From: an uncultured virus (IMG/VR IMGVR_UViG_3300023033_000001)
Taxonomy: Duplodnaviria > Heunggongvirae > Uroviricota > Caudoviricetes
IMG/VR virus record: IMGVR_UViG_3300023033_000001
DNA length: 64,000 nt
Reading direction: 5' to 3' (one strand)
Shown: positions 15,570-47,364 of the stretch, piece after piece
Layout: each line of letters begins with the position of its first letter
Position numbering within the stretch: the stretch's first letter is position 1
Translations under genes and position numbers: made by a program
The notes under the pieces: model-generated
What the model was told of the DNA's origin: nothing
Database searches by the model: none
Seen by the model: only the letters and a program-made list of their open reading frames with translations

Positions 15570-16004
15570 TCACTGTCCATTAGGAACAACAACAATTTCA
15601 AAGTAACACAACTCGTACTTGTCTGCTGACAGGATGTGGATACCGTCCACTTCAATACTATCTGCAATACCGAACGGGACGACTATAATTGTGCAACATT
15701 CACGAAATGATTCTTCCACAATTCTGCCACATGGCGTGTCCAGAATAAGAAGCTCAGCCATCAGTTGATGTTTGGATTCATCGATCCACAAGTTGACTAT
15801 TTTCCCTGCTACATCTGGGTAATACAAATCAATATTATTTTTATTGTGTTCAGATTGAAGTACGCAGAGCATTCCTTCACGAAATTTATCGTCTTCATTG
15901 AACTGTTTTACGATACGTTCCATAAGACGTTTTGTGTACAGATTCCCTGATTGGAGCACTTTGTCATACCACACACTTTCTGACAAAATACGGTGTTCGT
16001 TCAT
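15570..16004 (-). CDS. T4 gp21-like prohead protease homologue, apparently inactive
   Basis: NLYT..LMER...IDL...I.NLWID...AELLILDTPCGRIV follows the S77 pattern; the usual SH and SSRG positions read AG and VPFG. Confidence 0.55.
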   Translation of the reverse strand: MNEHRILSESVWYDKVLQSGNLYTKRLMERIVKQFNEDDKFREGMLCVLQSEHNKNNIDLYYPDVAGKIVNLWIDESKHQLMAELLILDTPCGRIVEESFRECCTIIVVPFGIADSIEVDGIHILSADKYELCYFEIVVVPNGQ

Positions 16005-16304
16005 TACGCAACTCCTTGTAAGTATAAATGATGTTTAAGATTCTCAGATTGATGCTCCATATGCATGGTTAAAAGTCACGACCTGTTGGGAAGTATATAA
16101 CTTCTTAGTCGTAGAAAAATCCGCAGCACCACGACAAGGAGTGAGTAGTTCGCCTAGTTGACAGAATCTTTGTGTTGCCTTGTGGTGAAGTATAAGACCA
16201 CAAAGGTTTGGGTATCCTCAAAAAGAAAGAGCAAGAAAGCGAAACGCTTTCTTGCTCTTTCGTCAGCTACATATGGATGCATTTACTTGTTAGATAATGT
16301 ACGA

Positions 16305-17272
16305 TTACCGTCTTCCTCTGATTCTGTTTACGTTTCTGCTGTAACGTGTTTCCATGCGAGTACGTTTCTCTTCATATTCGTCATACTCATTATCTTTGAG
16401 AAGATCCTCGACCGCAGAACAGTTGTCTTCCGCCAAATCAATAATGTAATCATGGACGGCTTCACTCATTTCATCGAACATCTTAAACAATTTCTGTTTA
16501 GAGCATGGGATAGTCACCTGCGTATAGAAGTCAAAATCCTCAGTCCACGCTTCTTCAAGATTTACTGACAAGGATTCGAGAATTGCTGAAGTGACATCGC
16601 GTCCACGGTAATCAGACAAATCTTCTGCGGCTTTTTCTACACAATCGTCTACCACGGAATCAAGGTTGTAATAATAACAGCTTAACACATCTCCCTTAGC
16701 ACCGTCTTCAAGACGAACATAGAACGGATTACCTCCGTGATGCTGATTGAAGATATAGCACATCTCATCACTTCTGAGGTCACTAGAAGTATACCTGCCA
16801 CCACTGTACTCTTCAATGGCAACAAGCAAATCCACTACATCATCAATACTATCAGAGACGTATTCTAATTTACGACCTCGCTTGAGATTATATCTATGAC
16901 TTATGGATTCCCCTATCTTTATTTGAGCCTTGCCGTCTTTGAGCATATTGTTCGTTGCATAAGCAACGATGTCGAGTGCCTTAAGAAGAGATGCTTTGCT
17001 GATAGGTTTTCCAGCTTCAACGGCTTTCTTAGCCTTATCGTCTCTTTGTAACGCTTTGCATAAAAATTTGTAACATGCTTTGTCAGCACAATAGAATCCA
17101 TAACCGTAAGCACGTGTAAAACTAAGTCCCATATCCTGAAGCATAGTCACGATATCTTGAGAGTCCCAGGAATCCTCAGTGAGCTCAACCACATTTCCTT
17201 TGACCTTTACGAACACACTGGATGGTAAGTTATTATCAGTTTCTTTTTTAAGGTATTTTTATTGACTAACAT
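16305..17272 (-). CDS. Acidic protein with an Arg-rich C-terminus; the 5' end needs a -1 frameshift or a 1-nt insertion
   Basis: ATG at 17272 with a GGAGGTG SD is one base out of frame with the 303-aa ORF; in-frame A_AAA_AAG at 17249-17243. Confidence 0.6.
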
Positions 17273-17302
17273 TTTTACACCTCCCTTCTACTTGAAATAA
17301 TA

Positions 17303-17590
17303 CTAATTGTCATAGTCATAAGCGTAACACGGGCAGAACCCAGAGGAGTTGATAACTTCTGAACGTGGATTTGAAACGAAAGCTATACGGGTGACAAACT
17401 CTTTTAAAGTCCCATCATTACGTTCCAGGGTGGCAAATACTCCATTACGCTTCTTTACTCTGTACTGAACAGACAACCCAAGTTCATCTGTAATAAGGTC
17501 GTATGGCGTAAGACTGATTATTTGACCCTCAACAAAAACCGATGTACGGCTTTCATCTGTTTTATTCGTTTGTTTGTACGACATGAGCAC
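17303..17590 (-). CDS. Hypothetical protein
   Basis: 95-aa ORF directly downstream of the orphan RE. Confidence 0.5.
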   Translation of the reverse strand: MLMSYKQTNKTDESRTSVFVEGQIISLTPYDLITDELGLSVQYRVKKRNGVFATLERNDGTLKEFVTRIAFVSNPRSEVINSSGFCPCYAYDYDN

Positions 17591-17610
17591 ACCGTAAAAT
17601 AAAGAGAGAT

Positions 17611-17708
17611 GGAACTACCCACCGCCTTTAGGCGGTGGTATTCAAATCCATTAGAATTTGATTTGTACATTCTCACGAATTGGGCTTCATGTTTCATTGA
17701 ACCGTTGA
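17611..17708 (-). ncRNA. Orphan TnpB reRNA (omega-RNA)-like scaffold plus right end
   Basis: Aligns over about 95 nt with 29636-29732 (tnpB 3' end and RE hairpin); no tnpB upstream. Confidence 0.7.
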
Positions 17709-17712
17709 CTGA

Positions 17713-18213
17713 CTATTTAAGTGTTTCCATAGGTGGGAATCTACTGTCAGTGTAAACCGTAATATCCTGTGATGCCATGCACTCTATGATATCGTAGATT
17801 TCATCAGCACAATGACTGCAAACCGTATGTTGTTCCTTGTATGTGATTCCTAAGCCCCCTCTGTTTTCATGTCTGAATTTGACGCGACAGGCATTAAACA
17901 CATTCTCTTCATGATTAAACTCTTCCTCGTTAATCATCACTTGTTTCGTCCACTTGAGCTTGTTTCCCTTTACGAGTTTTCGTGCTATTGTGTTGAGCTG
18001 TGTCTCAAGCTCTGTACGCCAATGCTCATATGTCTCTGCTAAATCGTGACGATAACAAAGGCAATATTCCATCAGACACCAATTCTGCAACACTTGTTCG
18101 GCATGGTCTGCCACAACCGCCTGAAACTTTGCCTTGTCCAATGCCATCTCAAAAGCACGTCGCCTGTTTATGTCTTCTTTTTGTTTTTTAATTCTTATCA
18201 TCTTTATTGCCAT
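17713..18213 (-). CDS. DUF29-like paralogue 1 of 3
   Basis: EMA..K..FQ...NWCL..YC...Y.HW..EL shared with 33868 and 34384. Confidence 0.7.
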   Translation of the reverse strand: MAIKMIRIKKQKEDINRRRAFEMALDKAKFQAVVADHAEQVLQNWCLMEYCLCYRHDLAETYEHWRTELETQLNTIARKLVKGNKLKWTKQVMINEEEFNHEENVFNACRVKFRHENRGGLGITYKEQHTVCSHCADEIYDIIECMASQDITVYTDSRFPPMETLK

Positions 18214-18225
18214 ATGAGACACTTC

Positions 18226-18597
18226 CTAAAGCATGTGAAGTTCACGAAGAATGCGTTTTGCTTCTGTCACATCAAATACGTCTGCATATTCTCCAGTATT
18301 CTCATCTGTTGCACACATGAGGATGTTGCCGAACAAAGGCTGCTGAAAGATGTGCATACGATAAGGAAGAATCGAAAATGCGTTGATGTTTCCGTCTTCC
18401 ATATTCTCGCCGACAAACATACCCTCATCATCACAAATGAAATCATAACTGATGTTTGGGTTCTTTTTTGATTCTCCAACAGAGAACATCGTAATCAGGC
18501 GACAGTCAATTTTACTGCGGATGCTCTCCAAGGAATCGTCGATGGTGATAGTTTCGATTTTGCCGTTTTTCGGAATCCAAATCATTTTACGTTTCAT
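18226..18597 (-). CDS. DUF3846-like protein
   Basis: ITIDDSLE...ICDDEG...N...LFGNILMC pattern. Confidence 0.6.
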   Translation of the reverse strand: MKRKMIWIPKNGKIETITIDDSLESIRSKIDCRLITMFSVGESKKNPNISYDFICDDEGMFVGENMEDGNINAFSILPYRMHIFQQPLFGNILMCATDENTGEYADVFDVTEAKRILRELHML

Positions 18598-18828
18598 GCG
18601 TTTCTCTTGTCAAAGGCTCTTTCAAGAACTTTTTGGAACATGTCCAGAGTACGAAACTCATTCACTCCGTACTCATGGCATCCTTAATGATGACACTAAT
18701 AAGATTTCGTTGCTTTTACAGCACCACGAAAGCAACGAAACCTTATTAACTTGCACGGCGGAGTGTCGAGACGTGTCGATATGCAGAAAAGCCGTATAAA
18801 ATCTATGGATGCTAACTTGCCGGTAACT

Positions 18829-18890
18829 TTCACCAAAGGGCGAGCGGAAGCCCACGGGCTAAAGACCGTTGGCTTTCGGCTCACTTATGG
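18829..18890. mobile_element. Head-to-head LE-LE fusion of IS605-type left ends
   Basis: TTCAC|CAAAGGGCGAGCGGAAGCCCACGGGC-TAAA on +; CATAAGTGAGCCGAAAGCCAACGG on -; both share one hairpin. Confidence 0.7.
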
Positions 18891-19536
18891 CAAACATACG
18901 TAAAATTCCTTGTGCGATACCACGTGCAAGAGCTTTCTTGTACTCATCTGTCGAAAGCAGCTCTACTTCATTCGCATGAGACATAAAACCGCATTCAACC
19001 ACCAAAGACGGCATAGTAGTATGTTTGAGTGTGTAGTATGTGCTGTTCGCCTTAGCACCACGGTTAATTATTGGATGCTCCGTACCGTCTTTTTCTGTTA
19101 CAGTAAAATCCTTTACCTGTTCCATGATACTTCTCTGTACAACAGAAGCGAACGTCTTTGACTTAGAGCTCGTAGAGAAATAAAATGTTTCAATACCGCT
19201 CGCTGTTTCACCTTTATACGAGTTGCAGTGAATTGAAACGAAGCACGTAGCTTTATCCAAATTGGCTATGTTACAGCGTGACGGCAATGTAACAGTGTCA
19301 TCTGAAGCTCTGGTCATAATGACGTCAACAGGAGGTTTGGGGTCATCAGGACAAAAGTCGTTCATCATGAAATCACCAGTAAGCGTGTCCCGTGTCGCAT
19401 ACAGTAAATATGACGCTACGTATAAAGAGATATCGAGGACGATGTCTTTTTCTTTGTGCTTTTTATTATGTGACACAGCCCCCGGTGCAGACCCACCATG
19501 TCCTGGATCTATGCAAATATTTGGTAATTTAGCCAT
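18859..19536 (-). CDS. N-acetylmuramoyl-L-alanine amidase (Amidase_3), endolysin candidate
   Basis: IDPGHGG, EKDI, MTR..D, SIHCNS and VECGFMSH zinc-amidase motifs. Confidence 0.93.
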   Translation of the reverse strand: MAKLPNICIDPGHGGSAPGAVSHNKKHKEKDIVLDISLYVASYLLYATRDTLTGDFMMNDFCPDDPKPPVDVIMTRASDDTVTLPSRCNIANLDKATCFVSIHCNSYKGETASGIETFYFSTSSKSKTFASVVQRSIMEQVKDFTVTEKDGTEHPIINRGAKANSTYYTLKHTTMPSLVVECGFMSHANEVELLSTDEYKKALARGIAQGILRMFAISEPKANGL

Positions 19537-19693
19537 AAACAACACCTCCGTGCCCCAACAAACATATACTGTTTCGATAGATTCAGGGTCTGTGGTGCTG
19601 TTAAATCTGTGTAAGTCATCGTATGCTAAAATGACGATTTAAAGCAACGGTATTTCGTCGTTGCTCTTTTCTCAAATACTAGGAGAACAAACA

Positions 19694-22069
19694 ATGGCAT
19701 TAGAATCCACACGTACAATTAAAGAACTATCCGAAGAATGCGAAGCACGGAGACTTCACGTGAAACCAACAGGTAAGAATGGCAAATATTTAAAAGAGGA
19801 TTATATACGTGCGTTACGTGCTGATTATCTTGTTGAGCGTTACGGCGAACCGGACGGAGTTCCGTTTCCTTTACGGTTCATGCTGACGATGGACTGTCCG
19901 ATGCTGTGTAAACGATACGCTGCGATTAAGAAACCATCAGAGCAAATTGCCATATGGAAAAACGACGGAAAATACGCAGTTGAAGAGAAAATCGATGGTT
20001 GTTTTCATTATTCAACACCAGTTCTTCTCGCTGATGGAACCACAATGCCCATAGGAGAAATCGTTGAAAAGAAACTTTCAATAGAAGTGCTTTCGTTTGA
20101 TGAAACAACGCAAACACTGGTGCCTAGAAAAGTAGTCAGTTGGTTTGACAATGGGTATAAAAAGGCTTCCCAGTGGTTGAGGTTGAAAAATATAGGCAAG
20201 ACCAACGCACCATTCAGAAATGTTCGCCATCAAGGTGTTTTAATAACTCGTAATCATTCCATTTGGTCGGAAGGAGGATGGTTACCTGCCGAAGCTGCTA
20301 AAACTGTGAACATGATTACTCTTGGCATGAATAAAACACAAAAGCAAGTCATGTATGGATGTGTGCTTGGTGACGGCACGTGTTCGTATTCACGTAAAGA
20401 AGACAAGAACGCTTATTTTCAGTTTGTTCATTCTGTGAAGCAGAAAGACTACTTTGACAAAAAAGCTCTTTTGTTTTCTAGGTTTCCTCACAAAATTTCT
20501 GTAAACACATCTGGCTATGGTTCTGAGATTCATTCGTTTCGTGTAAATGCTTGTGCTGATGCCACAAGTCTTCGGACAAATGGATATTGTGATGGTCATC
20601 GTAAAGTCACACAAAGCTACTTATCCGAAGTTGGAACCCTTGGACTTGCTATATGGTTTATGGATGATGGTTCACGTATAAAAGAAAGAGATGAACTTGC
20701 ATGTCATTCAACAAATAAATTCTCTCGTGCAACCTTCTCAGCTTATCGGTACACTGAAAGTGACGTTCGAGAGCTTGTGTCGTGGTTAAATTCCTATGGC
20801 TATGAGGCGTCTGCTCACATGACAACACGAAAAAGTAAAAATCTTGGGTATGTAATCCAGTTGTCATCCAGTGGGAGTCAGTTATTTTTCAAAGACATCG
20901 CACCATATGTTCCTGTCTCAATGGAATACAAACTGCCTTTGGAGTTTCGTGGGGGACATAAAGAGTGTTGGTGGGATAACAACTCACCGGACTACAAAAC
21001 TGTCTCGACACCTGTTACATGGAGCTTTAATGACCGCAGTAATTGTGACCGTACAATAACATCAACGAAGGCATACGATATTGAAGTAGAAGGATGTCAC
21101 AGCTATGTGGCTAATGGTATGGTCGTTCACAATTCCAGAAGCATCTTGATTTATGATGCAGAACGTAAAGAGTTCGACTTTTACTCGCGCCACAATAGCG
21201 TTACAGACTTTTTGCCTATCTCGTACAAGAGCACTATCCGTACTTTCGGAACATTCACATCAGATACTAACTTCGTTCTCGACTGTGAAATCATCGCAAC
21301 CAATTCAAACACAAAAGCTCGTAAGACATGCACCACTCAGCTTAATTCAACATCTGCTTTGCTTGCGATGAACCCGGCAGAAAGTTTTGAAATTCAAAAG
21401 GATAGTCCGTTGATGTTCGTCATCTTTGACTGCCTTTACGATGGCGTTGATTTGCGTTCGCTTCCGTGGAAGGAACGTCATCCTCATGCCGAACGTCTTG
21501 CGAAAGAACTTTCCGACGCAGGGTTCCTATGCAAGATCAATCCATACGTGCTTGAAAACAAACGTGACTTCTATGAAAACATCATCCGACAGGGCGGGGA
21601 AGGCATTGTTGCAAAATTGGTTGATGCACCTTACACATCAACAACTTCACGAACTAACGATATGATTAAAGTCAAGAGAACCATTCAATGTGATCTGCTC
21701 CGTGATTTGGACGCGTGGGTGTCTGGTTACACAGAAGCAACAAAAGGAAAAGCCAATGAAAACTATATCGGAGGTCTTTGTTTCTCCGTAAAGATTCGTG
21801 ACAAGGAAGGAAACGTATCCGTTCGTGAAATCGGACGTGTTGCAGGTATTCCACAAGATCTCCGTATTGAGATGACTGATTACGACGATAATGGAAACCC
21901 AAAGCTGAAACATGAATACTATGGTCGTGTTGCAACGCTGTCAGGGCAGGACATTTCCGGCGTCAATATGCGAATCACACATTGCACGTTGAAAGAATGG
22001 CGTCCTGATAAAGGACCATCAGACTGTGAAACACTCGAAATGTCTGAATTGGAAAAACTCATTCTGTGA
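19694..22069 (+). CDS. ATP-dependent DNA ligase with a LAGLIDADG intein
   Basis: EKIDG|intein|SR motif I, LDCEI, FVIFDCL, GEGIVAK, IKVK and an OB-fold ending WRPDK; AGGAG SD before ATG 19694. Confidence 0.92.
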   Translation: MALESTRTIKELSEECEARRLHVKPTGKNGKYLKEDYIRALRADYLVERYGEPDGVPFPLRFMLTMDCPMLCKRYAAIKKPSEQIAIWKNDGKYAVEEKIDGCFHYSTPVLLADGTTMPIGEIVEKKLSIEVLSFDETTQTLVPRKVVSWFDNGYKKASQWLRLKNIGKTNAPFRNVRHQGVLITRNHSIWSEGGWLPAEAAKTVNMITLGMNKTQKQVMYGCVLGDGTCSYSRKEDKNAYFQFVHSVKQKDYFDKKALLFSRFPHKISVNTSGYGSEIHSFRVNACADATSLRTNGYCDGHRKVTQSYLSEVGTLGLAIWFMDDGSRIKERDELACHSTNKFSRATFSAYRYTESDVRELVSWLNSYGYEASAHMTTRKSKNLGYVIQLSSSGSQLFFKDIAPYVPVSMEYKLPLEFRGGHKECWWDNNSPDYKTVSTPVTWSFNDRSNCDRTITSTKAYDIEVEGCHSYVANGMVVHNSRSILIYDAERKEFDFYSRHNSVTDFLPISYKSTIRTFGTFTSDTNFVLDCEIIATNSNTKARKTCTTQLNSTSALLAMNPAESFEIQKDSPLMFVIFDCLYDGVDLRSLPWKERHPHAERLAKELSDAGFLCKINPYVLENKRDFYENIIRQGGEGIVAKLVDAPYTSTTSRTNDMIKVKRTIQCDLLRDLDAWVSGYTEATKGKANENYIGGLCFSVKIRDKEGNVSVREIGRVAGIPQDLRIEMTDYDDNGNPKLKHEYYGRVATLSGQDISGVNMRITHCTLKEWRPDKGPSDCETLEMSELEKLIL
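20000..21133 (+). mobile_element. Intein (378 aa) with a LAGLIDADG homing endonuclease, in ligase motif I
   Basis: CFHYSTPVLLADG...TRNH...GCVLGDG...AIWFMDDG...YDIEV...VVHN|S. Confidence 0.93.
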
Positions 22070-22227: not shown

Positions 22228-25200
22228 ATGTCTGACGAACTTTATACCAATAATGATGAATGGATGGACAACCCTGAGGACATTAACGATAACGACACCG
22301 AAGATAAAGAGGACGTTTCATATCTGTTCAACACACCTGACTTTCTTAAACCAAACACAGACACAGAATCTCAAAATGTAACCTTGTCAACAATCATAAA
22401 TTCAAGATTACAAGGTTATGGAGTTGTCAAGGATTTTGAAAACGAAGACCGTAAAGAAGTGGAAACGTCTCCTGATGAACAGCTTCGTGCTTCACTGAAA
22501 CAGAAGACTTTCTCCAAGTCTGAAATTCAGAGGTCTATTGATGACTTTCGCCGTGAGGTACAAACAAAGATAACGACGAAAGACCTTGTAGACACAATCG
22601 TTGAAGTTGCGTCTGGATACAAATCCAAAGGAGACAAACTTGACCTGCTAGGATGGGATATCCTTGATACGGAAAAGAGACATTATAAGTATGTGCCTTT
22701 ACAAGCAATTACTGATTTCTCACGCCGCGATACGACCATCCGTAAAGCCGTATTTCGTAACAGTTTTGTGAACTTCATTAAAACAGGCGAGAAAAAGTTC
22801 GTTCCTGTTCTCGGCGATGAACTTGTTTCGTTCATAATTGAAGAAGTGTTTCAGTCACCTGACTTGTTACCTGCTTCACAAGGGTACGACATGTTTAGAC
22901 GCATGGCACGTGGTGTACGTGGCGATGGTACTCCATTCTCAGTAAGTGAACTGGCAGACAGCATTAGATTCTCTTGCACACCGGATGCACTGCGTGTCAA
23001 ATTCAATACGCTTGTGTCTCAGAATAAAAACGGCGGTTCGACATTGGTTTCATACTACGCAAAACACAATATCAGTTTGGATAAAGAACAGCTGTCACGT
23101 GATTTTTCTGCACGGATTTCGACCTCCTGCAAGCGTGTTGTCGAAAGCGGTCAGTTCGGTTTTGTTCAAGAAGAAACCATCGACACTTTAAAAGCGATGG
23201 ACTCTATTATTCAAGAGATGATAAAGCGTAACCTTTTCCATGTACTTATAGGACCCGCAGGGTCTGGCAAGGCGATGCCGAAAGACATGAAAATCCCAAC
23301 CCCTGATGGTGAGAAAACTTTTGGAGAACTCAAAGTAGGAGACTTTGTATTTGACCGTAAGGGACACCCAACTAAAGTTTTAGGTGTGTATGATCGTGGC
23401 GTTCGTCCGTGTTTTGAGCTTACTTTTTCAGACGGTAGAAAAACACGTTGCTGTGACGAACATCTGTGGACTTGTTATACTTCAAAAAACAACTTCAAAA
23501 CTCTTACATTAAGGGAGATGATGGAACTTGGAATCCGTCACGAAGGTCGCAAAGAAGGTGCGAGATTCCGTATACCAACAAACGAATGCGTCGAATATGA
23601 GCAAAAGACTTTACCCGTTCACCCGTACATCGTCGGTGCATTCCTCGGTGACGGGTGCTGTAAAGAACTCAACCTTACCTTGTCTTCAGACGACATTCCA
23701 GTAGTGGAGAGGGTAGCAGCTCTCTTAAATGCTACATATAAAAAGACTAGCACACAGAATTATTCATGGATATTCATAAAGAACGGGCACCCACTTAAAA
23801 CTAAGGATGTGTTTAAAGAGGTTGCTCCATGTCTCATACAGGGTTCTAATGACAAGAGGGTTCCTTCAGATTACTTGTACGGTTCCCGTGAACAAAGAAT
23901 TGCTCTTCTTCAAGGACTGTTCGACACAGACGGGAGTGTGTCATACAGGTCAAACGGGATGGCAAACTTCTCAACAACAAGTAAAACTCTGTATGAAAAT
24001 GTGTCTTACCTGCTGAGAAGTCTTGGTGTGCAGGTTTCAAACAAGTCAAAACCTGTATGCCGTGGACGGGTAAAACATGACGGTACATGTTCAGTCGATT
24101 ATACGCTCATTACTTACTTAAAACCAGAACAGTTTGAAATGTGTTTCTCCTTGCCTAGACAGTTAGACAAGCTAAAAACAGTATATGGCACTTTCAAACA
24201 ACCTGCAAAACGTACCGACCGTGTTGCCTTAGTTGATGTGCGTGAGGTTGAACCTTGTGAACAACAATGCATTTTAGTCGATAATGAAGAACATCTATTT
24301 CTCGCCAACGATTTCATCGTTACACACAACACACATAAAGCAGTCAATGAATACTTCCCGACTCTGGAACAAAAACGAGGTAAAGGGACGTTGCTCGTAT
24401 CTCTATCCACATTGGTTGCAATCAATGGAGCTGATCGTGCAACAAAACGTAATAAACCAACCAATCCTTGTTCCATTACCATGTTCAACTTCTGTAATAA
24501 AAATCCTCTTCGTTGTGCATGGGTTACTGGGTATGACACTTACTGTATTGACGAGTTCTCACAGTGGGGACTTGAGCAGCTTGACACGTTCATGTCGATA
24601 TTAAAAAGAGCTTATCAAGAGCGTTCAAACCTTGTTATTCTTGGTGACCTTGTTCAGATAGGAACATTCCTTGGCAGAGGAAATCTGCTGTACATGCTGA
24701 CTGCTAATTACCCATACACGGAACTAAGCACAAACCACAGAATTAAGGACGCAAGAATCAGCGAGGTCATTGACGATATAAGAATCAGACAGACACGCTC
24801 TTTTGAACCATTTCGGATGGATCTTATTTCATTACAAGCCTTCCTGCACAAGAAACCCTCTAAAAGTGAAATGTGTATCACTGGAAGCAACGCGTATGCC
24901 GGACTTGTGAACGAACTAAAACTGGAAGCAGAACTTAGACAATCCATTAACGACAAACTTCCGAACTTCTATGTGCCATCAGGAACCTCCGACTGGAATG
25001 ATTATGACGTATGGAATCAAAACGAAGAATGGATTCGAACACGAATGAAAAAAACATCATTGAAGGTACGACCGAAAGAGAACTACAGATTTGAACAAGG
25101 AATCGGTAAAAGCCTTCGTGCGTCATACAGCACAAAGTTTTTACGAAATGAAACATGCATTGCAATGATGTCATCAGAGTTTACCGTATGCGTCACTTCA

Positions 25201-29213: not shown

Positions 29214-29480
29214 AGTCACTCCGATCCATCTTTATTCACCATTAATAACTAATGGCTACTATTAAATCACACCAAAACTGGTGTGGAGGGATCTCTCATC
29301 GCAAGAAATATCTGCTTAAACAGGATGTTTCTTGCTCCGTTTATATCTCTGTCATGCACACGCTAGAAAGTTGGTGGCAGGAAACTATATCCAGTACAGA
29401 AGATACCACGTATTACCATCGCCACCAACGTCAGAATGGTAAAGAATACAACGGCACAGAAGACGCCTAGAAGAATGTTT

Positions 29481-29633
29481 AAAAACGCATCCATGTCGTT
29501 CACATTCCTGTACCTCTTCACAGGTATCACAAGGTTTCGTACAATCATTCCCGTCATCCTTGACCAGACAAATCATATCACAAACATTTCCAATGAACCC
29601 TTCCATCTTCAAATCCATTCTCACGTTTGTTTG
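29481..29633. repeat. About 150-bp imperfect direct repeat, copy B (RE flank and guide source)
   Basis: Aligns with 31166-31315; 47/48 identical over 29586-29633. Confidence 0.9.
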
Positions 29634-31165
29634 GTGAACTACCCACCGCCTAAAGTCGGTGGGCTTCAAATTCATTAGAATTTGATTTATCCATTCTCAC
29701 GAATTGGATTTCCTGTTTCAACGAACAGTCCACTCTACTAGAATTAAACCTAGTTTTGCTTCCCTGCCCTCCACAGGCATAAGTTCCGATAGTTCCTACC
29801 GTACTTTTAATCTTGCTTATCGCGTCATTTCGCAAATTGATTGCCGCGTTGTGGTCACGATTATGTTCTACACCACATTCTGGGCAAATCCATTTACGAA
29901 CGCTCAAATTCTTCACAGCTTCGTTCTTAAAACCACAATGACTGCACAACTGTGATGATGCGAACCACTTATCCGATTTAACCACGAAACAGTTATGAAA
30001 TTTGCTTTTCCATTCAAGCATATTCACAAACTTATTCCATGACACATCATTATAGTTTTTGGAATTGTGGCTGAAACGCATCATGCCTTTGATGTTCAAC
30101 GTCTCAACACCAATCACTTCATAACTACGGACAAGACGTAAAGTTTCTTTCTCCATCCAATCACGTCTTTTGTTAGCTATGTGTTCCTCAAATTTTGCCA
30201 ATCGTCGTCTAGCCTTTTCACGGTTTTTGGAGTCTTTCTTGGTTCTCGAAAAGTTCCTTTGCAAATGAGCCAGATGACGTTTTGCTTCTTGCTTGAATGG
30301 AACATAATTGTGTGCTGAGTGATTGTTTGAGTCAATGTAAGCCTTTGATGGTGAAAAATCCAGTCCGATAGCTTGGTTATCGTTACCAGAAAAAGACTTC
30401 TCTCTATCGTTCAAACTTTCATAGACGCAACAAATCGAAGCATAACAGCGTCCAGATTTTGTCACTTCGACGGTCAAATTCTTTCTCTTGATGCCTTTAG
30501 TATGGAACCATGCAGGAATGTGGTTATGACGAAACGTTACTTTGCCAATCTTTGGAATTTTAAGCCACATCTCATGTTCTGAAATAAGATCCTCCGACAG
30601 CATTACCTCGCTGAAAGAACAACCATCCTTTTTCTTCTTGAAACGTGGTTTTCCTTTCTTGCCCTTAAAGAACTCAGAGTATGATTTTTGAGCATCACGC
30701 CTAGCCTGTTGCAGAGCAACGGATGAAACTTCCTTCAGAAAAGGAAACAACTCACAAAGATCTTTCTCTAATGTGTATTTGAACCCTTTATAAATCTTGT
30801 TCTTTTCGTCTTTGTTCAGGTTACGACCTTTGATGTTATCAGCGTAAAATTGTTCCCTTGCTTCGACGTATTTGTTGTAGACAAAACGACGGCATCCACC
30901 AGTTTTGATGAACATTTGAAGTTGTTCTGGTGTTGGGTACAATCTGATTTTAAGACTACGCTTAATTTCCATTGGTAACTGACCTGTGTTACTGACCGAT
31001 ATGTGTGGTGGCAAACACTCGGTCAAAGTGTCTTTCGGGGATCAGCCTAGCCACCAAACATATAAATAGCATAACATGATGCTTCTTTCAAGTGCTTGTT
31101 TCAATTAAATTGGCTAGCTTTCATCCCACGGTCTAAAGCCCTTTGGTTTTCAAGCTCACAGTATG
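29634..31165 (-). mobile_element. IS200/IS605-family (IS1341-like, tnpB-only) element
   Basis: LE after TTTAT (31170-31166) with a subterminal hairpin; RE hairpin ending GGGTAGTTCAC at 29634; no tnpA. Confidence 0.9.
29650..30972 (-). CDS. tnpB: RNA-guided endonuclease TnpB
   Basis: KIRLYPT HTH start; RuvC IGLD, VETL and RDHNAAINL (D-E-D intact); CSHCG/CPECG zinc finger. Confidence 0.95.
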   Translation of the reverse strand: MEIKRSLKIRLYPTPEQLQMFIKTGGCRRFVYNKYVEAREQFYADNIKGRNLNKDEKNKIYKGFKYTLEKDLCELFPFLKEVSSVALQQARRDAQKSYSEFFKGKKGKPRFKKKKDGCSFSEVMLSEDLISEHEMWLKIPKIGKVTFRHNHIPAWFHTKGIKRKNLTVEVTKSGRCYASICCVYESLNDREKSFSGNDNQAIGLDFSPSKAYIDSNNHSAHNYVPFKQEAKRHLAHLQRNFSRTKKDSKNREKARRRLAKFEEHIANKRRDWMEKETLRLVRSYEVIGVETLNIKGMMRFSHNSKNYNDVSWNKFVNMLEWKSKFHNCFVVKSDKWFASSQLCSHCGFKNEAVKNLSVRKWICPECGVEHNRDHNAAINLRNDAISKIKSTVGTIGTYACGGQGSKTRFNSSRVDCSLKQEIQFVRMDKSNSNEFEAHRL

Positions 31166-31315
31166 ATAAATGCCTCGCGATCATTCACATTCCTGTAACT
31201 TTCAATCTGTATCCCAATATTCCGTATCATCACAGTCATCCTTGATCAGATAAGTTATTTTAGACTGATTTCCAATGAACCCTTCCATCCTCAAATCCAT
31301 TCTCACGTTTGTTTG
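31166..31315. repeat. About 150-bp imperfect direct repeat, copy A (contains the guide-matching site)
   Basis: Matches copy B; overlaps the 3' end of ORF 31260-31685. Confidence 0.9.
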
Positions 31316-31685
31316 ACAAGCCAGGCATCCTTTTTCCGTTTAATAATATCACAGCTTCGCAGTATAACTCATCATCACAGGACATGCCACGAAGACACCC
31401 GATCATAATATGACAGGCATCATATACGGTTGTAAACACATTCAGATTACGCCACGGTAAAGGTTTTTTTGGGTAATGGTAATACTTGACACATAAAGTG
31501 CATTTCTTACTGTTTCTACCTGTTTGAACGCCAAGAAGTTCGCCTCTTGCAGTCACTGCATCGAGATGTTTGTCTCCATGTTGATTGATTTTAATGGTTT
31601 CTTCAAGCTGCTCTAAACTTACTTTGTCATTCCGTGCCATCGTGTTCTTTATCCTGAGTATTTTCCTTGTGGTTTTTCTGTTCAC
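31260..31685 (-). CDS. Hypothetical protein whose 3' end matches the TnpB guide
   Basis: ORF of up to 141 aa; true start uncertain. Confidence 0.6.
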   Translation of the reverse strand: MNRKTTRKILRIKNTMARNDKVSLEQLEETIKINQHGDKHLDAVTARGELLGVQTGRNSKKCTLCVKYYHYPKKPLPWRNLNVFTTVYDACHIMIGCLRGMSCDDELYCEAVILLNGKRMPGLSNKRENGFEDGRVHWKSV

Positions 31686-32714: not shown

Positions 32715-33590
32715 ATGTACAGTTCAATACTGATTAACGTAAAAGACGAACACAGGTATCTCCCAGAATGGATTGAACACCATCTGAATCTTGGCTTCGA
32801 CCACATCTACGTTGTTGAAGACTTCAACTCTTCAAGCCATAGGGAACTTATCGACAAGTACATACAGACGAAGACGTTATCGCTTCATCGCATGGAAGAC
32901 TTTGGAATCCTCGACGAGCAGAAAAATTATACACCGTGGCGTCAGGTATGGATGTATAACAGATTTTTCACCTCAGGATTGGTACAGCCACATAAAGACG
33001 AATGGTGCGTGTTCCTCGACACGGATGAGTTCCTGATGTTTAAAGACGGGTATACACTCAACAACTGGATATCCGACCTGGAAACGAAAGCACGTGAAAC
33101 CGGCGATTGGTTTTCATACATCGTGTTGCGAAACTTCAATGCAAGTGGTCACATCTATGCTCCAAACGTACCTACAGTACAAGCATATAAACAATGGGAA
33201 TACAGAGACAACGACATGCTGTGCAAGTCAGTGGTCAATGTCTCAAGACCTTATAAATTCTTCTGTATCCAACGTGCGATGAGATACGAACAAACACAGC
33301 CTAGCAAACCACATGCACAGGAATTAGATACAGGTAATGTGTGGATAAATCATTATTTCACAAAGTCATGGGAAGACTGGCTGATTCGTATGAGACGTGG
33401 GTCACAAGACCCGAACCTTCGCAAACTTGAACAGTTCTTTGACATCTACAATAAAGATATGATGCGTTACAAATCACTTCTCATAGACTCATTCTATATG
33501 TGTCAGGATGAGTGGATGCAGGGTGGAACTGAGTTCATACCACAAGAGATTGCTCCTTGTATTGATGTTCTGAAAAGCTCTCTTCCGTGA
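32715..33590 (+). CDS. Glycosyltransferase (GT92 / GT2-like, GT-A fold)
   Basis: KDEHRYLPEWIEHHLNLGFDHIYV, FLDTDEFL (DxD), CKS and INHYFTKSWEDW. Confidence 0.88.
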   Translation: MYSSILINVKDEHRYLPEWIEHHLNLGFDHIYVVEDFNSSSHRELIDKYIQTKTLSLHRMEDFGILDEQKNYTPWRQVWMYNRFFTSGLVQPHKDEWCVFLDTDEFLMFKDGYTLNNWISDLETKARETGDWFSYIVLRNFNASGHIYAPNVPTVQAYKQWEYRDNDMLCKSVVNVSRPYKFFCIQRAMRYEQTQPSKPHAQELDTGNVWINHYFTKSWEDWLIRMRRGSQDPNLRKLEQFFDIYNKDMMRYKSLLIDSFYMCQDEWMQGGTEFIPQEIAPCIDVLKSSLP

Positions 33591-33634
33591 GCTACCCACA
33601 GCTCGAATCTGTTAAATGTCAGTTGGTAGTTCAC
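33587..33634. mobile_element. RE-RE inverted remnant
   Basis: GTGAGCTACCC...TTGGTAGTTCAC; its TGA is the stop codon of the glycosyltransferase gene. Confidence 0.65.
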
Positions 33635-33726
33635 CTCTCCTGAAAAATCTCCGATGAAGTCTGTGCAGTCATGTTAGGCGAAATTGACTCCCTTGAGTGT
33701 TATGCACGATGACATAGATCAGAAAT

Positions 33727-33775
33727 AAAAGACAAAAACCACAAGCCAAATAAAGGCTTGTGGTTTTTGTCTTTT
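33727..33775. terminator. Intrinsic terminator-like hairpin
   Basis: aaaagacaaaaaccacaagcc-N7-ggcttgtggtttttgtctttt. Confidence 0.75.
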
Positions 33776-33867
33776 TCATGGTGCTGTTTTAATCCCTTGG
33801 TTTTCTTTTGTGGTAGTGTCGCTATAAGACAAAATGGGTTTGTCTTATATTATAGCAGAGGATTGAA

Positions 33868-34359
33868 ATGGCACTAATATGGAAAAAGAAACGAATGATA
33901 CGGTCTGAAAGGATTCATCGAATCATCGAGATGGCTCTTAAAAAAGCTAAATACCAAGATCGTGTCGCTGATTTGCTGCCACAGATTGCACAGAATTGGT
34001 GTCTTTGTACATATTGCCGAATGTACGACCCAGACAACATAAATTACCGTGGGTGGCGTAAAGAACTCATCGCTCATATAGGAATGCTTAAATCGATTCC
34101 TGTAAAAGGCGATAAGGAAAAATGGACACGAGATGAAGTCATAAATACAAGCGAGTATAACAATGTGGATGTAATTCGCTGTGTATGTGACTTCAAACTT
34201 GACGATGAGGATGAAATTGACTTCACGCAATCAATAAGAAAAGATCTGTATCGTGATTGTGCAGAGAATGCAGAAACAATCGTGTCGCTTATCTCAAGTG
34301 ATTCGTTGCCCTCAGAAAAGCTCTATAAGATATTCCCACTTAAAACAGATCGATTCTGA
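33868..34359 (+). CDS. DUF29-like paralogue 2 of 3
   Basis: EMALKKAKYQ...QNWCLCTYC...YRGWRKEL. Confidence 0.75.
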   Translation: MALIWKKKRMIRSERIHRIIEMALKKAKYQDRVADLLPQIAQNWCLCTYCRMYDPDNINYRGWRKELIAHIGMLKSIPVKGDKEKWTRDEVINTSEYNNVDVIRCVCDFKLDDEDEIDFTQSIRKDLYRDCAENAETIVSLISSDSLPSEKLYKIFPLKTDRF

Positions 34360-34383
34360 CAGAAAATGAGGTGAACATTAATT

Positions 34384-34893
34384 ATGATACGCATAAGTCA
34401 TGCAGTTAAAAAACAACGCTTTATTCTTGAGATGGCTTTTAACAAAAGTCAATTTCAGACACGTGTGTTAAACCTTGCAAAGCAGATTGCTGAAAACTGG
34501 TGTCTCTGTCAATATTGCCATAAATATGAAAAGACTTTTCCTACGTATGTCCACTGGAAAAGCGAGCTTGAAGGATATCTTGACGAGTTAAACACAATGT
34601 CCATTGACAATGATAGATCACGTGAGAAGTGGAGCCTTGAAATTCTCAGAAAGGGAGACTTTGATGACGCTCAAAAAGTTTTCCGACAATGCAAAAGGAA
34701 ATTCATGATAGAGCATGTGCTGAACATGCCAAAAAATTCGCAGATAGAAGTGTGTGATGACTTTGCCAACATGATTGAGGATATCTCAAAATGTATCGGA
34801 AGCGTTGACGGCATTGTCCCGTTCACATGCAAATGGTTTCCTGAAGTGTTGACAACCTTCGACATCCGATGGAGATCCGAACACAAATATTAA
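34384..34893 (+). CDS. DUF29-like paralogue 3 of 3
   Basis: EMAFNKSQFQ...ENWCLCQYC...YVHWKSEL. Confidence 0.75.
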   Translation: MIRISHAVKKQRFILEMAFNKSQFQTRVLNLAKQIAENWCLCQYCHKYEKTFPTYVHWKSELEGYLDELNTMSIDNDRSREKWSLEILRKGDFDDAQKVFRQCKRKFMIEHVLNMPKNSQIEVCDDFANMIEDISKCIGSVDGIVPFTCKWFPEVLTTFDIRWRSEHKY

Positions 34894-34906
34894 AGGATGT
34901 GAATCA

Positions 34907-35515
34907 ATGGCACGACAAAATAAAACAATCAAACCTAATACAGAAGAGAAAAAGCAACAAGAGCAACAGGAACTTGAAGAGCTCAAGCTCAGAATGGATA
35001 AGATGAAAGCCGAAGAAGAGCGACTAAAAGCAAACACGGTTCCAACGGCTGAGTATCTTGAAAACATTCGCAAAACGCATAAAGACCCGTATTGGATGTC
35101 GTATGAAGTGGTACAGATAAAGCTCGGATCACCCATACAGACGATTTTCACTAGCGAACATTACTACGAGGCATTCGACGTTTTCAAGGAATACTTCGAG
35201 AAAGATAAACACGCCAGAATGGATTTGGTCGTTCGTGAGGTACGTGATGGCACACCTATTTTCAGAACAATCGTAGCTGAATTTGAGGTAGCGGGAGCAC
35301 ATGGGGATGTGACATCTGATGGAAGACAAACACTTTCATCGTTTGCTAGTCCGACCGATTATGGACGTTTTGGCCCTAGTGTGTACAATCAAACGTACAA
35401 AGATGCTAAATGGGCAGGATATGAGGCATACTCTCGCCCCCTAAAGACTTTCAGTTATGGAGATTGTAGCAGTGGTTTTGACCAGAAAAGCGAGCCGAAA
35501 GCCCACCCGCTTTAG
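34907..35515 (+). CDS. Hypothetical protein; C-terminus encoded by a mini-element
   Basis: Ends DQKSEPKAHPL* with the TAG in the hairpin loop. Confidence 0.7.
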   Translation: MARQNKTIKPNTEEKKQQEQQELEELKLRMDKMKAEEERLKANTVPTAEYLENIRKTHKDPYWMSYEVVQIKLGSPIQTIFTSEHYYEAFDVFKEYFEKDKHARMDLVVREVRDGTPIFRTIVAEFEVAGAHGDVTSDGRQTLSSFASPTDYGRFGPSVYNQTYKDAKWAGYEAYSRPLKTFSYGDCSSGFDQKSEPKAHPL

Positions 35516-35531
35516 CGGGTGGGTAGTTGAC
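35483..35531 (+). mobile_element. 49-bp single-hairpin LE-RE mini-element
   Basis: TTGAC|CAGAAAAGCGAGCCGAAAGCCCACCCGCTTTAGCGGGTGGGTAGTTGAC. Confidence 0.8.
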
Positions 35532-35752
35532 TAAAGGTGGTGTGAACTTTCTTTATATGCAACAGTTTGAGAACCCATCCCTGAAGTATGAGACCCTAAC
35601 GTATCTAAAACAGGTGATGTTTCTTTAGGCAAAGGTTGTGCTTGCGTCGTATCGTTTTCGTATAACAAAGCAAAAAGTACAGCGCAAACAATGATAGTGA
35701 ACACCATATAGATGCTTTTTATTATGTTCATTTCGGTTACCTGTATGTTCAA
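35531..35752 (-). CDS. Small single-TM protein
   Basis: Hydrophobic VFTIIVCAVLFALLY; the stop overlaps the last base of the mini-element. Confidence 0.5.
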   Translation of the reverse strand: MNIQVTEMNIIKSIYMVFTIIVCAVLFALLYENDTTQAQPLPKETSPVLDTLGSHTSGMGSQTVAYKESSHHL

Positions 35753-37323: not shown

Positions 37324-37647
37324 CGCAGTCCTCAATAAGTACGTCAGATGAAGACATAAGACAAAAAGATTTCCTTTGAGATATGCAGTCTGCCCTTCCC
37401 AAAGGAAACAAATGGTTGCGTTAATTTGGCAACGCAACACCTACACATCTTTGATAACATCTATGGTTATCATGTCGCTATTTATTGCTGTAAGCCACCA
37501 ACATGAAAGTCAGTGTAATGCGTATTGTCATTTACGACAACGACAATACGGCTTCCCCTCGACAAAGCATCAACTGAGTTGAACGAACTGGGGAGGCATC
37601 ATAACGTTTCATTAAAGTTGATGCATAGTTCCTAAGAGATGAGTCTG

Positions 37648-37823
37648 TTCTCTTCAGTATGACATTTACTACGGGCGTTTTAGAGGTAGTACACCCATAT
37701 TAAATGCCATACCTCTGAGACGGACGAGACTGTGTGAATCAACGGATACGTGCGTTACACCTGTAATAAATGTCATACCTCTGAGACATCTAATGGAGGT
37801 TTAAAATGCCACACCTACGAGAT
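37648..37823 (-). repeat. 36-bp repeats with a 30-bp spacer plus an inverted copy (CRISPR-like or structured RNA)
   Basis: Repeats at 37686-37721 and 37752-37787, a partial third at 37803-37823, and an inverted copy at 37648-37683. Confidence 0.6.
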
Positions 37824-40199: not shown

Positions 40200-40664
40200 T
40201 CACATGTCTCTGTAATTGTCTTCACCACGAACACTTCGGCAGACCTCCTCATAATTTTCAATGCCAAAACCACATTCGTACACTTCAAACACTTGCACAT
40301 GTGTGTCTTTAAGACGACGTTGAAGTGACCGAGGAAGCTCCGAAAACGTGTGCTGCGAGGGTTCCTTGAAAAACCGGCAATCCGTAAGTGCAAAGTCACC
40401 ACGTAAGTATTTACGAAGAATGGCGAATCGTTTCTTGCCGTCCACCACTTCATACGGTCTGTCTTTTCCTTTGAGATTTGGATTCTCACCGATAACGAAT
40501 GGAATTACCGATGTGTCAATCAGAAGACTTTCGATGTAACAGGTAAAGTCCTCAAGATGATAACCTTGCAGAACGTCTTCATCTGGATCAACGATGTAAG
40601 ACGTATTAAGTAACTGATCAACCGTCATTTCCATTCGTTCGACTCTCACATTAGGAACAATCAT
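40200..40664 (-). CDS. DUF262 (ParB/Srx-fold) domain protein
   Basis: IESLL....IP...YEVVDGKKRF and FSELP..LQRR. Confidence 0.75.
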   Translation of the reverse strand: MIVPNVRVERMEMTVDQLLNTSYIVDPDEDVLQGYHLEDFTCYIESLLIDTSVIPFVIGENPNLKGKDRPYEVVDGKKRFAILRKYLRGDFALTDCRFFKEPSQHTFSELPRSLQRRLKDTHVQVFEVYECGFGIENYEEVCRSVRGEDNYRDM

Positions 40665-42289: not shown

Positions 42290-42321
42290 TCTCCAACTAT
42301 CGTAGTTTGGTTATTATCCTG

Positions 42322-42888
42322 CTAGTCCCACATGTCTAAATAATTTTCAGCGAGAAGCGAGAACCCTTCTTTTCGGATTCGATTATGCTCTTTCCATAAT
42401 GATTCATCTGTGTCCTCTGTCTGGCCAGTCATATCAGAAAGAGATACTTCAAAAGCCATCTTTATCTTATTCAATACCTCATGCCATGTTTCAGGAGTCA
42501 TTCCTGCTTTGTAACTCGCACCTTTTCTAATCCATACGTCCAAAGCAGGAATCGCAAATTCTGCCAAAGCACACCCGAACTCCCAACATGCGTATGGCGT
42601 AGGATATCCTTCCAACATGCAGAAGACAAAATCCATCGGATACCACAAGTCTCCGTCCTGTGCGGTTATTTCATGACACGTATCGTGAAGTGTCCATTTC
42701 GGAAACCAGGCATCCTCTTCAAGGTCGTCATCAGACGGAAACGTGTACGAACAAATGACCGTTTGACCGTCACTTAAACGAACCATGAATTTGCCGAAAT
42801 AAGGATTCCTATCGTCATTGAGTTCTGTTTTTACCTTGTACGGTCTTTCCTCTGAAAACTTTTTCCACTTGAATTGCTCAAGAGACAT
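42322..42888 (-). CDS. Hypothetical protein
   Basis: W.EVL.KI..AFE...EGF.LLAE....MWD C-terminus. Confidence 0.7.
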   Translation of the reverse strand: MSLEQFKWKKFSEERPYKVKTELNDDRNPYFGKFMVRLSDGQTVICSYTFPSDDDLEEDAWFPKWTLHDTCHEITAQDGDLWYPMDFVFCMLEGYPTPYACWEFGCALAEFAIPALDVWIRKGASYKAGMTPETWHEVLNKIKMAFEVSLSDMTGQTEDTDESLWKEHNRIRKEGFSLLAENYLDMWD

Positions 42889-43203
42889 ATTACACTATCC
42901 AATAAGTTATGTTGTCGTACATCATGCAAGGAACTTGGATGTCATATTCTTTCATATCCGCACCAATCCAATCCCATGTTTCTCTCTCCCCTTGTGTATT
43001 GCGTGTGGGCAACAGACGTTGCCCACGAGTCCTTATCGTTTCAGCAGAATGGCATTCCCATATTGGGCTATGTTCTTTTCAGCAAAGTAGTTATCCTTGC
43101 CCCATGCATCTGTCATATGAAGTTTAATCGGTTCGGCTTTATACCCATTCACCATCAAAGCGGCGATAAGGCATGTTTTCGCCTCAACCGTAATAACCAC
43201 TTC

Positions 43204-43241
43204 GTGAACTACCCACCCGCTTTAGCGGGTGGGTAGTTCAC
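43204..43241. mobile_element. Perfect 38-bp RE-RE palindrome
   Basis: GTGAACTACCCACCCGC-TTTA-GCGGGTGGGTAGTTCAC. Confidence 0.85.
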
Positions 43242-43245
43242 ACAC

Positions 43246-44250: not shown

Positions 44251-44390
44251 ATCGCTACCTCACTTCATTTAAGATAAAAGTCTCGATAGCAACCTTTCCA
44301 ACCATTTCAATGTTGCTATCATCACACGATCTTATAGCACACTATTTCTTACAGTATCTCTAACAGCACCACGAAACAAAAAGTCTCCTA

Positions 44391-44962: not shown

Positions 44963-44988
44963 AAACAGAGTATCTGGTGAGGTGTTGC

Positions 44989-47018: not shown

Positions 47019-47359
47019 GTCAACTACCCACCGCCTTTAGGCGGTGGGCTTGTAACTGACCCGTAGCTCTTGGTCGAGTGTTTGACACTCTACTACGTTT
47101 TTTACCAACTTTCTTTTCAGAAGATTGGCTGTCGTTACATCGTGGGGTGATTGACTGCACCCCGTAGGCTTGAATCATGTTCAAGACCCACTTAAACTTG
47201 AATCTTGGTGTTTAAGTTCAGAGAGTGCCTTCAGTCCAAGTACCAAACGGTTTTCTCTCAAAACCTTAAATACAAAATATCACTTAACAAAGCAAGCAAG
47301 ATTTTTAGTTGGCTCGCTTACCCACGGGCTTTAGCCCGTGGGCTTCCGCTCGCCTTATG
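47019..47359 (-). mobile_element. 341-bp non-autonomous IS605-type element (LE, promoter, reRNA-like scaffold, RE)
   Basis: TTCAC|CATAAGGCGAGCGGAAGCCCACGGGC... LE; TTGCTT-N17-TATTTA; GGGGTGCAGTCAATCACCCC hairpin; ends ACAAGCCCACCGCCTAAAGGCGGTGGGTAGTTGAC. Confidence 0.8.
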
Positions 47360-47364
47360 GTGAA

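Follow-up and report, generated by a model that had tools for sequence, protein, structure and literature searches.

We analysed a 64,000-nucleotide (64-kb) stretch of DNA from an uncultured virus of the Caudoviricetes (IMG/VR record IMGVR_UViG_3300023033_000001; this whole stretch is hereafter 'the window'), which belongs to a ~243-kb phage-like contig, and studied within it a short copy of the right end (RE) of an IS200/IS605 tnpB-type transposon that stands behind a gene other than tnpB. An earlier note had proposed that this orphan RE is either an immobilised second guide RNA, used in trans by the TnpB protein encoded elsewhere in the window, or the terminus of a ~1.3-kb unit made up of a left end (LE), cargo and RE. 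For comparison we used G001, the record of a sister phage (a 98.6-kb fragment, 38% complete), which was compared whole with the window and is 83-91% identical to it at the nucleotide (nt) level where the two align. Listed from upstream to downstream, the features of the locus are:

18859..19545, minus strand: N-acetylmuramoyl-L-alanine amidase gene (Pfam Amidase_3, E 1e-44), its C-terminus extended into the following mini-element
18821..18889, minus strand: LE-like single-hairpin mini-element of 69 nt (CATAAGTGAGCCGAAAGCC...GGTGAAAGTTAC...), in the last amidase codons, absent from G001
18718..18730, minus strand: upstream box TTCGTGGTGCTGT, a recurrent motif, inside a conserved long inverted repeat and in a region conserved in G001
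18226..18597, minus strand: DUF3846 gene (Pfam DUF3846, E 2.6e-7), native and syntenic with G001, not cargo
17713..18222, minus strand: open reading frame ORF169, 169 aa, probable start ATG at 18213, with two paralogues in the window
17610..17706, minus strand: orphan RE fragment, the 3′ module of an omega RNA or right-end RNA (reRNA), ~97 nt with two local hairpins, ending GGGTAGTTCC(A)
17618..17639, minus strand: terminal RE hairpin (CCACCGCC / GGCGGTGG stem, CTAAAG-type loop), of the dispersed-hairpin family D1, present in both the minimum-free-energy and the centroid fold
17591..17609, minus strand: would-be guide flank, by its appearance what is left of the ancestral DUF3846 terminator (its 3′ half with the T-tract), then the ribosome-binding region of ORF95

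The window holds one tnpB gene, and the element around it served as the reference for the orphan:

29634-31168, minus strand: resident tnpB element, its boundaries taken from the relatives L001-L003
29650-31026, minus strand: tnpB gene (Pfam HTH_OrfB_IS605, OrfB_IS605 and Cas12f1-like_TNB)

As judged by sequence, the resident TnpB appears intact: its residues 23-417 match, over the full length, solved chains named 'RNA-guided DNA endonuclease TnpB' (8h1j and 8bf8, E 5e-55), and the acidic RuvC positions D, E and D are aligned in the stretches ...ldfs..., ...vetln... and ...nrdhnaa.... The relatives L001-L003 share 84-90% amino-acid identity with it. At the RE boundary these relatives are alike up to ...GGTGGGTAGTTCAC and diverge directly after it, the resident RE ending TAGTTCAC; at the LE boundary the window and L001 are alike from ...TATCATAC on, and the LE is preceded by TTTAT (TCTAT in L001). 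We also observed direct repeats of ~90-150 nt, 84% identical, that flank the resident element (29544-29633 and 31226-31315) and duplicate the overlap of the upstream gene and the downstream gene; the resident guide recurs unchanged at 31296-31315, where CTTGT and not TTTAT stands ahead of it. The repeated stretch is single in G001, with two methyltransferase-like genes (DLPYG motif) nearby.

The scaffold of the resident guide RNA can be outlined from the four to five tnpB-linked REs available. By alignment and RNAalifold, the conserved RE block is ~165 nt long and contains a covarying stem (alignment A2, columns 47-52/59-64), which reads CTAG...CTAG in two sequences and CCAA...TTGG in two, with two pairs changed on both sides; two local 3′ hairpins; and a 5′ GAACU predicted to pair at long range with the AGUUC immediately ahead of the guide, at the place where the omega RNA of ISDra2 forms its pseudoknot. 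A covariance model, R1, was built from the five tnpB-linked REs.

Against this reference the orphan is plainly homologous, truncated and mutated. The stretch 17612-17710 aligns with 29636-29734 without gaps at 84% identity over 99 nt (family D3; 85.1% over 94 nt by blastn), and the orphan does not lie at a tnpB 3′ end, the gene upstream, ORF169, encoding a helical protein without TnpB domains; both points bear out the earlier description of a TnpB-less copy of a tnpB-element end behind a non-TnpB gene. Its score with R1 is 54 bits (E 8e-12) as compared to 186 bits for the resident RE, with the alignment beginning at about position 80 of the model, 45 model positions deleted in the 5′ half and many non-canonical pairs. 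The orphan thus keeps the 3′ ~97 of the ~165 scaffold nt, while ~65 nt of the 5′ scaffold are gone, including the covarying stem and the 5′ GAACU. Its 5′ junction is ambiguous within 17704-17722: upstream of this zone lies the 3′ end of ORF169, as in the ORF169 copy of G001, and homology to that G001 locus stops at 17704.

The terminus of the orphan is altered, as the earlier note had remarked. It reads GTAGTTCC(A), the resident RE GTAGTTCAC; the last positions are GGGTAGTTCCA as against GGGTAGTTCAC in 5/5 tnpB-linked REs, and the terminal motif is TTCCA, as against TTCAC in all five, because of which the epithet 'immobilised' is apt. A 4-bp stem conserved with covariation, TCCA/TGGA (GGAA/TTCC in L002), reads CCCA/TGTA in the orphan. 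By hand count on the alignment, ~13 orphan changes fall at positions that are invariant in four tnpB-linked REs, among them both sides of this stem and the last two bases. Of the likeness in fold between the two scaffolds, then, the two 3′ hairpins have been kept, while the 5′ stems are gone and the TCCA/TGGA stem is broken. Identity of the orphan with the four true REs is 76-81% across 103 aligned nt, as against 86-93% for these REs among themselves; it groups outside the resident RE family and is therefore not the recent copy of the resident TnpB's reRNA for which it had been taken.

The sister phage G001 reveals what the locus looks like without the orphan. Window and G001 share the order amidase, DUF3846, ORF95 and are collinear at 84-86% over 18890-19536, 18227-18820 and 16906-17608; the middle segment, 594 nt comprising the DUF3846 gene and its upstream region, aligns at 84%. 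Missing from G001 are 18821-18889 and, separately, 17609-18226 (ORF169 with the RE piece). Because G001 keeps the inner 594 nt and lacks both ends separately, the difference between the phages evidently amounts to two separate indels around a native gene, not to one 1.3-kb (1.28-kb) LE-cargo-RE insertion. In place of 17609-18226, G001 carries a 58-nt stretch with an entire terminator, hairpin and T-tract alike (L005 5255-5300: full hairpin AGAGAGGAA...TTCCTCTCT, then TTCTTTTT), of which the window retains only TTCCATCTCTCTTTATTTT. Because the window keeps only the 3′ half of G001's full terminator, we read the would-be guide as a remnant of the DUF3846-gene terminator. The homologous G001 site is diverged, with no TTTAT preceding the flank, and no LE is present at the left junction of ORF169 (18193-18226).

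We conclude that the orphan is probably the right end of an IS200/IS605 element of the tnpB type that stands alone, truncated and mutated, at a recombination junction. Since it has no tnpB, has lost ~65 nt at its 5′ side, ends in TTCCA and occupies a site that in the sister phage lacks TTTAT, it would be neither a canonical insertion nor mobile, and is most probably not a competent guide. In the order of events that we infer, the ancestral locus would have had the order that the sister phage shows, with the amidase and DUF3846 genes followed by the terminator and ORF95. An RE fragment of an older or foreign tnpB element would have been joined to the 3′ flank of ORF169 within an ~18-nt zone of weak similarity (AGTnnAC), and ORF169 together with the RE fragment, ~620 nt in all, would have replaced the 5′ half of the terminator through recombination not driven by a transposase; separately, the 69-nt LE-like hairpin element would have entered the end of the amidase gene. 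The relic would be transcribed, if at all, probably as the 3′ untranslated region of a DUF3846-ORF169 operon, where its two hairpins, with what remains of the T-tract, may take the place of the lost terminator.

Several observations weigh against this account. Both local hairpins of the orphan are intact, with one change resulting in a G-U pair and one repairing a mismatch. The terminal UUC, the pseudoknot strand, remains, and a GGAAC is present ~225 nt upstream in ORF169, so that long-range UUC/GGAAC pairing in the orphan transcript is conceivable in formal terms. The GAACU/AGUUC pairing of the reference scaffold is invariant and hence lacks covariation support; the extent of that scaffold was inferred from five close relatives only and, because the 5′ part of it encodes TnpB as well, conservation in that part is no proof of RNA function. 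Moreover, engineered omega RNAs bear deletions, such as Trim2, which removes stem 3b (passages of Nakagawa et al. 2023, PMC10097598). Finally, taking G001 as the ancestral state rests on one intact terminator in a 38%-complete fragment.

Compatible with a decayed right end, though unlikely in our estimation, is that the RE hairpins owe their retention to a present role in terminating or stabilising the DUF3846-ORF169 transcript, much as elements of the repetitive extragenic palindrome (REP) and bacterial interspersed mosaic element (BIME) type are retained as transcript-terminating or transcript-stabilising hairpins. With the insertion the terminator lost its 5′ half, and the GC hairpin of the orphan now precedes the surviving T-rich tract; a weak terminator-like site is called at 17623-17608; and hairpins of the family overlap the 3′ ends or stop codons of tnpB, the amidase gene and the ORF ending at 35515. 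However, the family hairpin is followed by TAGTTCAC and not by a U-tract, and its copies are found in either orientation, some of them upstream of genes. Nor is the orphan better conserved than its flanks: a 4,088-nt contig of run X1 has the same arrangement over 17278-19700 at ~97% identity (63 differences and 7 gaps), and 2/63 differences fall within 17591-17712, the relic thus being conserved neither more nor less than the DNA around it.

The orphan's terminal hairpin belongs to an end type that is dispersed through the window. The pattern GGTGGGTAGTTCAC occurs 10 times in the 64 kb at one mismatch or fewer, and 1, 7, 2 and 3 times in G001, G002, G003 and G004, respectively (related records of 99, 138, 228 and 252 kb), as compared to 0 for reversed-pattern controls. 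We curated 16 hairpin loci, leaving out 16140, 26026 and 54163 (3 mismatches to the 14-mer) as well as 32529 (66%, family D1). All 16 fall within the 34% of the window that lacks a homologue in G001 (high-scoring segment pairs of at least 100 nt), with a permutation p <= 5e-5 that is generous, the loci being clustered in 10 of 27 gaps. Three of the insertions relative to G001 are clean: 69 nt (18821-18889), a 49-nt single hairpin (46909-46957) and ~340 nt (47019-47361). A hairpin with TAGTTCAC also ends TnpB genes of G002-G004 that are only 35-38% identical to the window's, and a TAGTTGAC variant ends the tnpB of a tnpA+tnpB element in G004, the motif thereby terminating TnpB genes of three subfamilies (26-38% identity). 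Going by these alignments, the phage has a single intact tnpB element, and hairpin relics of this end type number at least 16.

In bacterial and archaeal genomes (genome_contigs) the motif is present in 115 stretches, often at contig ends. All 81 motif sites in the 80 genome loci fetched read TAGTT(C/G)AC, as the search pattern demanded, and directly after TAGTT(C/G)AC the genome sequence is unrelated. The window TnpB was matched upstream at 9/36 motif sites with at least 800 nt upstream, a count by single-sequence phmmer that probably misses divergent TnpBs and that we did not use as a fraction of palindrome-associated transposable elements (PATEs); a scan of genome_contigs for TnpB relatives confirmed none.

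Three further features of the dispersed hairpins are worth recording. First, the loop CTTTAG/CTAAAG provides the stop codon of tnpB (29650-29652), the amidase gene (18859-18861) and a 202-aa ORF (35513-35515), and the hairpin elements carry a stop codon in either orientation. Second, a 1,967-nt block at 33582-35548, which holds two ORF169 paralogues and the 202-aa ORF and has its own upstream box (33775-33787), has a hairpin element at either end (33587-33634 and 35488-35531), and G001 has ~100 unrelated nt instead. Third, a 4.1-kb segment at 42296-46436 that is absent from G001 contains a RelA/SpoT-domain gene (44953-45972) and five hairpin loci, of which one (43204-43241) is a perfect palindrome of 38 nt, complete with both tails.

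A broader possibility, to which we give little credence, is that in this jumbo-phage lineage such end hairpins (hairpin plus TAGTTCAC) are portable borders of accessory-gene cassettes, pairs of which would be excised or recombined by a Y1 transposase (TnpA) acting in trans, with TnpB-less units guiding the TnpB of a co-infecting phage against sister phages that lack the insertion; the orphan would then be a minimal RE that is still usable. Hairpin pairs that could serve as examples are the LE-like hairpin at 18889 with the RE at 17610, and the hairpins bounding 33582-35548; the example of a TnpB-less unit with an omega RNA is the following PATE-like element:

47019..47361, minus strand: PATE-like LE...RE unit of ~340 nt without tnpB, with a 145-nt omega-scaffold-like RE of a different TnpB subfamily

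The RE of this unit, a near-complete omega scaffold, is 92.4% identical over 145 nt to that of the tnpA+tnpB element of G004 (L020). G001 lacks the unit and has the empty site TCTAT|GTTAGTTTGTTGACACATCT; the flank GTTAGTTTGTTGATACATCT matches this empty site, right behind TCTAT, at 19/20 positions. The cognate tnpB remains as two fragments in the window (46062-46211 and 47038-47163). We therefore regard 47019-47361 as a better candidate than the orphan for a guide in trans, and if any TnpB-less RNA of the window guides cleavage in this manner, this is the one to consider.

For the orphan itself, the proposal that the resident TnpB binds and processes it in trans, and that it thus works as a second guide directing cleavage of ATCTCTCTTTATTTTACGGT targets beside TTTAT, strikes us as very improbable. 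The RE homology is true, the two 3′ hairpins and, to all appearances, the resident TnpB are intact, transcription is plausible for a piece downstream of a promoter-like box and two genes, and the use of PATE-borne omega RNAs in trans is an accepted idea in passages of Meers et al. (preprint, PMC10055086). Against it stand the loss of ~65 nt of 5′ scaffold with the covarying stem and the predicted pseudoknot partner, which is the very defect that the earlier note had named as fatal to its own proposal; the broken conserved stem and the ~13 changes at RE-invariant positions; and the diverged G001 site with no TTTAT ahead of it. Targets are wanting as well: allowing up to three mismatches, the flank ATCTCTCTTTATTTTACGGT is matched nowhere else in the window, which agrees with what the note had noticed, and it has no exact match in viral_contigs (host genomes were not scanned with it). 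In scaffold pattern scans the orphan is confined to this contig: viral_contigs gave two matches, both tnpB-linked REs, and metagenome_contigs five, namely two of window DNA, two tnpB REs and one short contig with a tnpB 3′ fragment, with no second orphan in either.

We can all but dismiss the composite transposon, in which 18889-17610 moved or moves as one 1.3-kb IS200/IS605-type unit with the DUF3846 gene and ORF169 as cargo: the LE-like hairpin and the RE fragment do lie on the same strand in the correct order, TnpA can choose alternative boundaries and capture extra sequence (passages of PMC10055086), and a Y1 TnpA exists in the phage group (G004:185873-186235, 115 bits), but G001 holds the inner 594 nt between the same neighbours without both ends and ORF169, so that the unit did not arrive as one piece, the RE motif is TTCCA and not TTCAC, the LE flank is TTTGC (TTCGC in G001) and not TTTAT, no LE lies at the left junction of ORF169, and no Y1 transposase or tnpA was found by Pfam among the 67 window ORFs scanned. 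That a full element was inserted here and later overwritten by ORF169 is likewise disfavoured, because the G001 site lacks the transposon-adjacent motif (TAM).

The minus-strand LE-like hairpin that the earlier note placed upstream is real (18821-18889): it resembles the LEs at 31113-31149 (resident) and in L020 (the tnpA+tnpB element of G004), it is 91% complementary to 47321-47364 (inverted family I3), and its loop provides a new stop codon for the amidase, which in G001 ends RVFAS*. The 'promoter box' that the note put at 18719 holds as a recurrent upstream motif: TTCGTGGTGCTGT has 11 matches in the window at two mismatches or fewer as compared to 1.9 expected, and 9/11 are intergenic, 60-153 nt upstream of a gene start on the same strand (the sites are 1920, 6960, 16123, 18718, 19589, 22103, 33775, 41657 and 44363). 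The motif is a candidate phage-specific promoter or regulatory box. A scan of 17200-19700 for sigma-70-type promoters gave 4 sites vs 5.8 expected, no signal. Relatives of the DUF3846 gene were found at two loci only, the more distant of which (L019) has other downstream genes and is uninformative.

ORF169 appears to be a mobile accessory gene that moves on its own. Its copy in G001 is 89% identical at the nucleotide level, lies ~30 kb away with no RE piece behind it, and is flanked there by homologues of window 40690 and 40235, a position that another gene (40200-40664) occupies in the window. The earlier label, 'DUF29-like paralogue', was right as to paralogues, two of which are present in the window (33868-34359 and 34384-34893; blastp E 1e-21 and 3e-21), and is not borne out by Pfam as to DUF29: at E <= 0.01 ORF169 matches DUF7731 alone (E 0.0029; 17.9 bits vs a cut-off of 27). 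The protein is predicted to be all-helical (pLDDT 93); Foldseek against the PDB gave nothing at E <= 0.001, and the best VIA-align row, 3fcn_A (Z 8.2, rmsd 4.8, 127/158 aligned), which is presumably a DUF29 protein, has a Z within the tool's stated noise for helical proteins. ORF169 has no match in PHROGs, and its 32 homologues carry no informative name (one is labelled 'hypothetical protein'). We considered a general link between the ORF169 family and the hairpins and rejected it: the G002 homologue (L140) has no motif match nearby.

The window as a whole is phage-like, a Pfam scan finding an endolysin-type amidase, an intein-bearing ligase and helicase and many ORFs without a family, and its relatives are confined to IMG/VR and metagenome records of 99-252 kb. 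Megablast against 50,697 phage records gave no match for 16000-20000 or 29300-31400, and Rfam at gathering thresholds gave 0 matches over the window. The LAGLIDADG inteins of the ATP-dependent ligase-like gene (19999-21154) and the helicase-like gene (23275-24326) are missing from the G001 homologues and are thus a presence/absence polymorphism between the sister phages. Repeat arrays with a period of ~66 nt (GTCTCAGAGGTATGGCATTTATTATGGGTGTAATAC-like) occur at 37465-37796, followed by a conserved, structured-looking segment, and at five or more G001 sites (for example 74063-74366 and 95998-96302); at 7.0 kb and 26.4 kb G001 has such arrays where the window has hairpin elements. TnpB-like genes of differing subfamilies number two to four per related jumbo-phage record, with the one Y1 TnpA in G004, and G001 (54437-55480) has a 561-aa ORF with weak TnpB similarity at a place where the window has none.

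By itself, the orphan is what transposon decay and phage mosaicism ordinarily leave behind, and to label it a second guide would be to over-read it. The phage pair is of wider use as a natural system in which to ask if IS605-type ends are a driving force in the turnover of cassettes in large phages, and if phages that compete are subject to TnpB homing from one to another.

Among known systems, some likenesses are general. REP/BIME elements, which are associated with the RAYT class of Y1 transposases, are short, GC-rich single hairpins with a conserved flanking motif, and like them the hairpins described here are dispersed, intergenic, present in both orientations, often at gene 3′ ends and in some cases perfect palindromes (43204-43241). 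The difference is that here the hairpins share sequence with the true LE and RE ends of tnpB elements and reside in a phage, with no RAYT or TnpA among the window ORFs scanned. The PeSLs of T4-type phage genomes are mobile regulatory cassettes located at shuffling boundaries; as with the PeSLs, stem-loops border accessory blocks that differ between related phages, 16/16 hairpin loci here lying in segments absent from G001. The repeats described here are, however, transposon ends and not promoter stem-loops, and any causal role of theirs in shuffling would be putative.

The closer comparisons are with characterised IS200/IS605 elements. For ISGst2 of Geobacillus stearothermophilus, passages of Meers et al. 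(PMC10055086) give TTTAT as the TAM and TTCAC as the transposon-encoded motif (TEM). The resident element has TTTAT beside its LE and TTCAC at its RE boundary, that is, the same TAM and TEM, as well as subterminal hairpins and an omega RNA overlapping the tnpB 3′ end. The likeness is one of reported motifs rather than of sequence comparison, and the settings differ: a ~243-kb phage-like contig here, a bacterial chromosome there. The ISDra2 omega RNA requires a 116-nt scaffold, in which nt -5..-3 form a pseudoknot with -103..-105 that is stacked on stem 1 (passages of Nakagawa et al. 2023, PMC10097598). Common to both systems, on that description, are a guide RNA encoded at the RE, a terminal stem-loop adjoining the guide, pre-guide nucleotides pairing with a distant 5′ segment (here the predicted GAACU/AGUUC), and the protein itself, the resident TnpB matching chains 8h1j and 8bf8 as given above. 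The scaffold here appears longer (~165 nt conserved, with a predicted structure), and the orphan ends before the segment that would supply the equivalents of the pseudoknot and stem 1.

PATEs, finally, lack tnpB and often encode omega RNAs that are presumed to be used in trans (passages of PMC10055086), and the window has a tnpB-less derivative of this kind, with both LE and RE, in 47019-47361. The orphan differs from a PATE in having no LE of its own, ~60% of the scaffold, a mutated TEM and an ancestral site without a TAM, which makes it a fragment. Offering neither a complete omega RNA nor the make-up of a PATE, the orphan is, to go by its letters, best filed as a solo, eroded IS200/IS605 right end.

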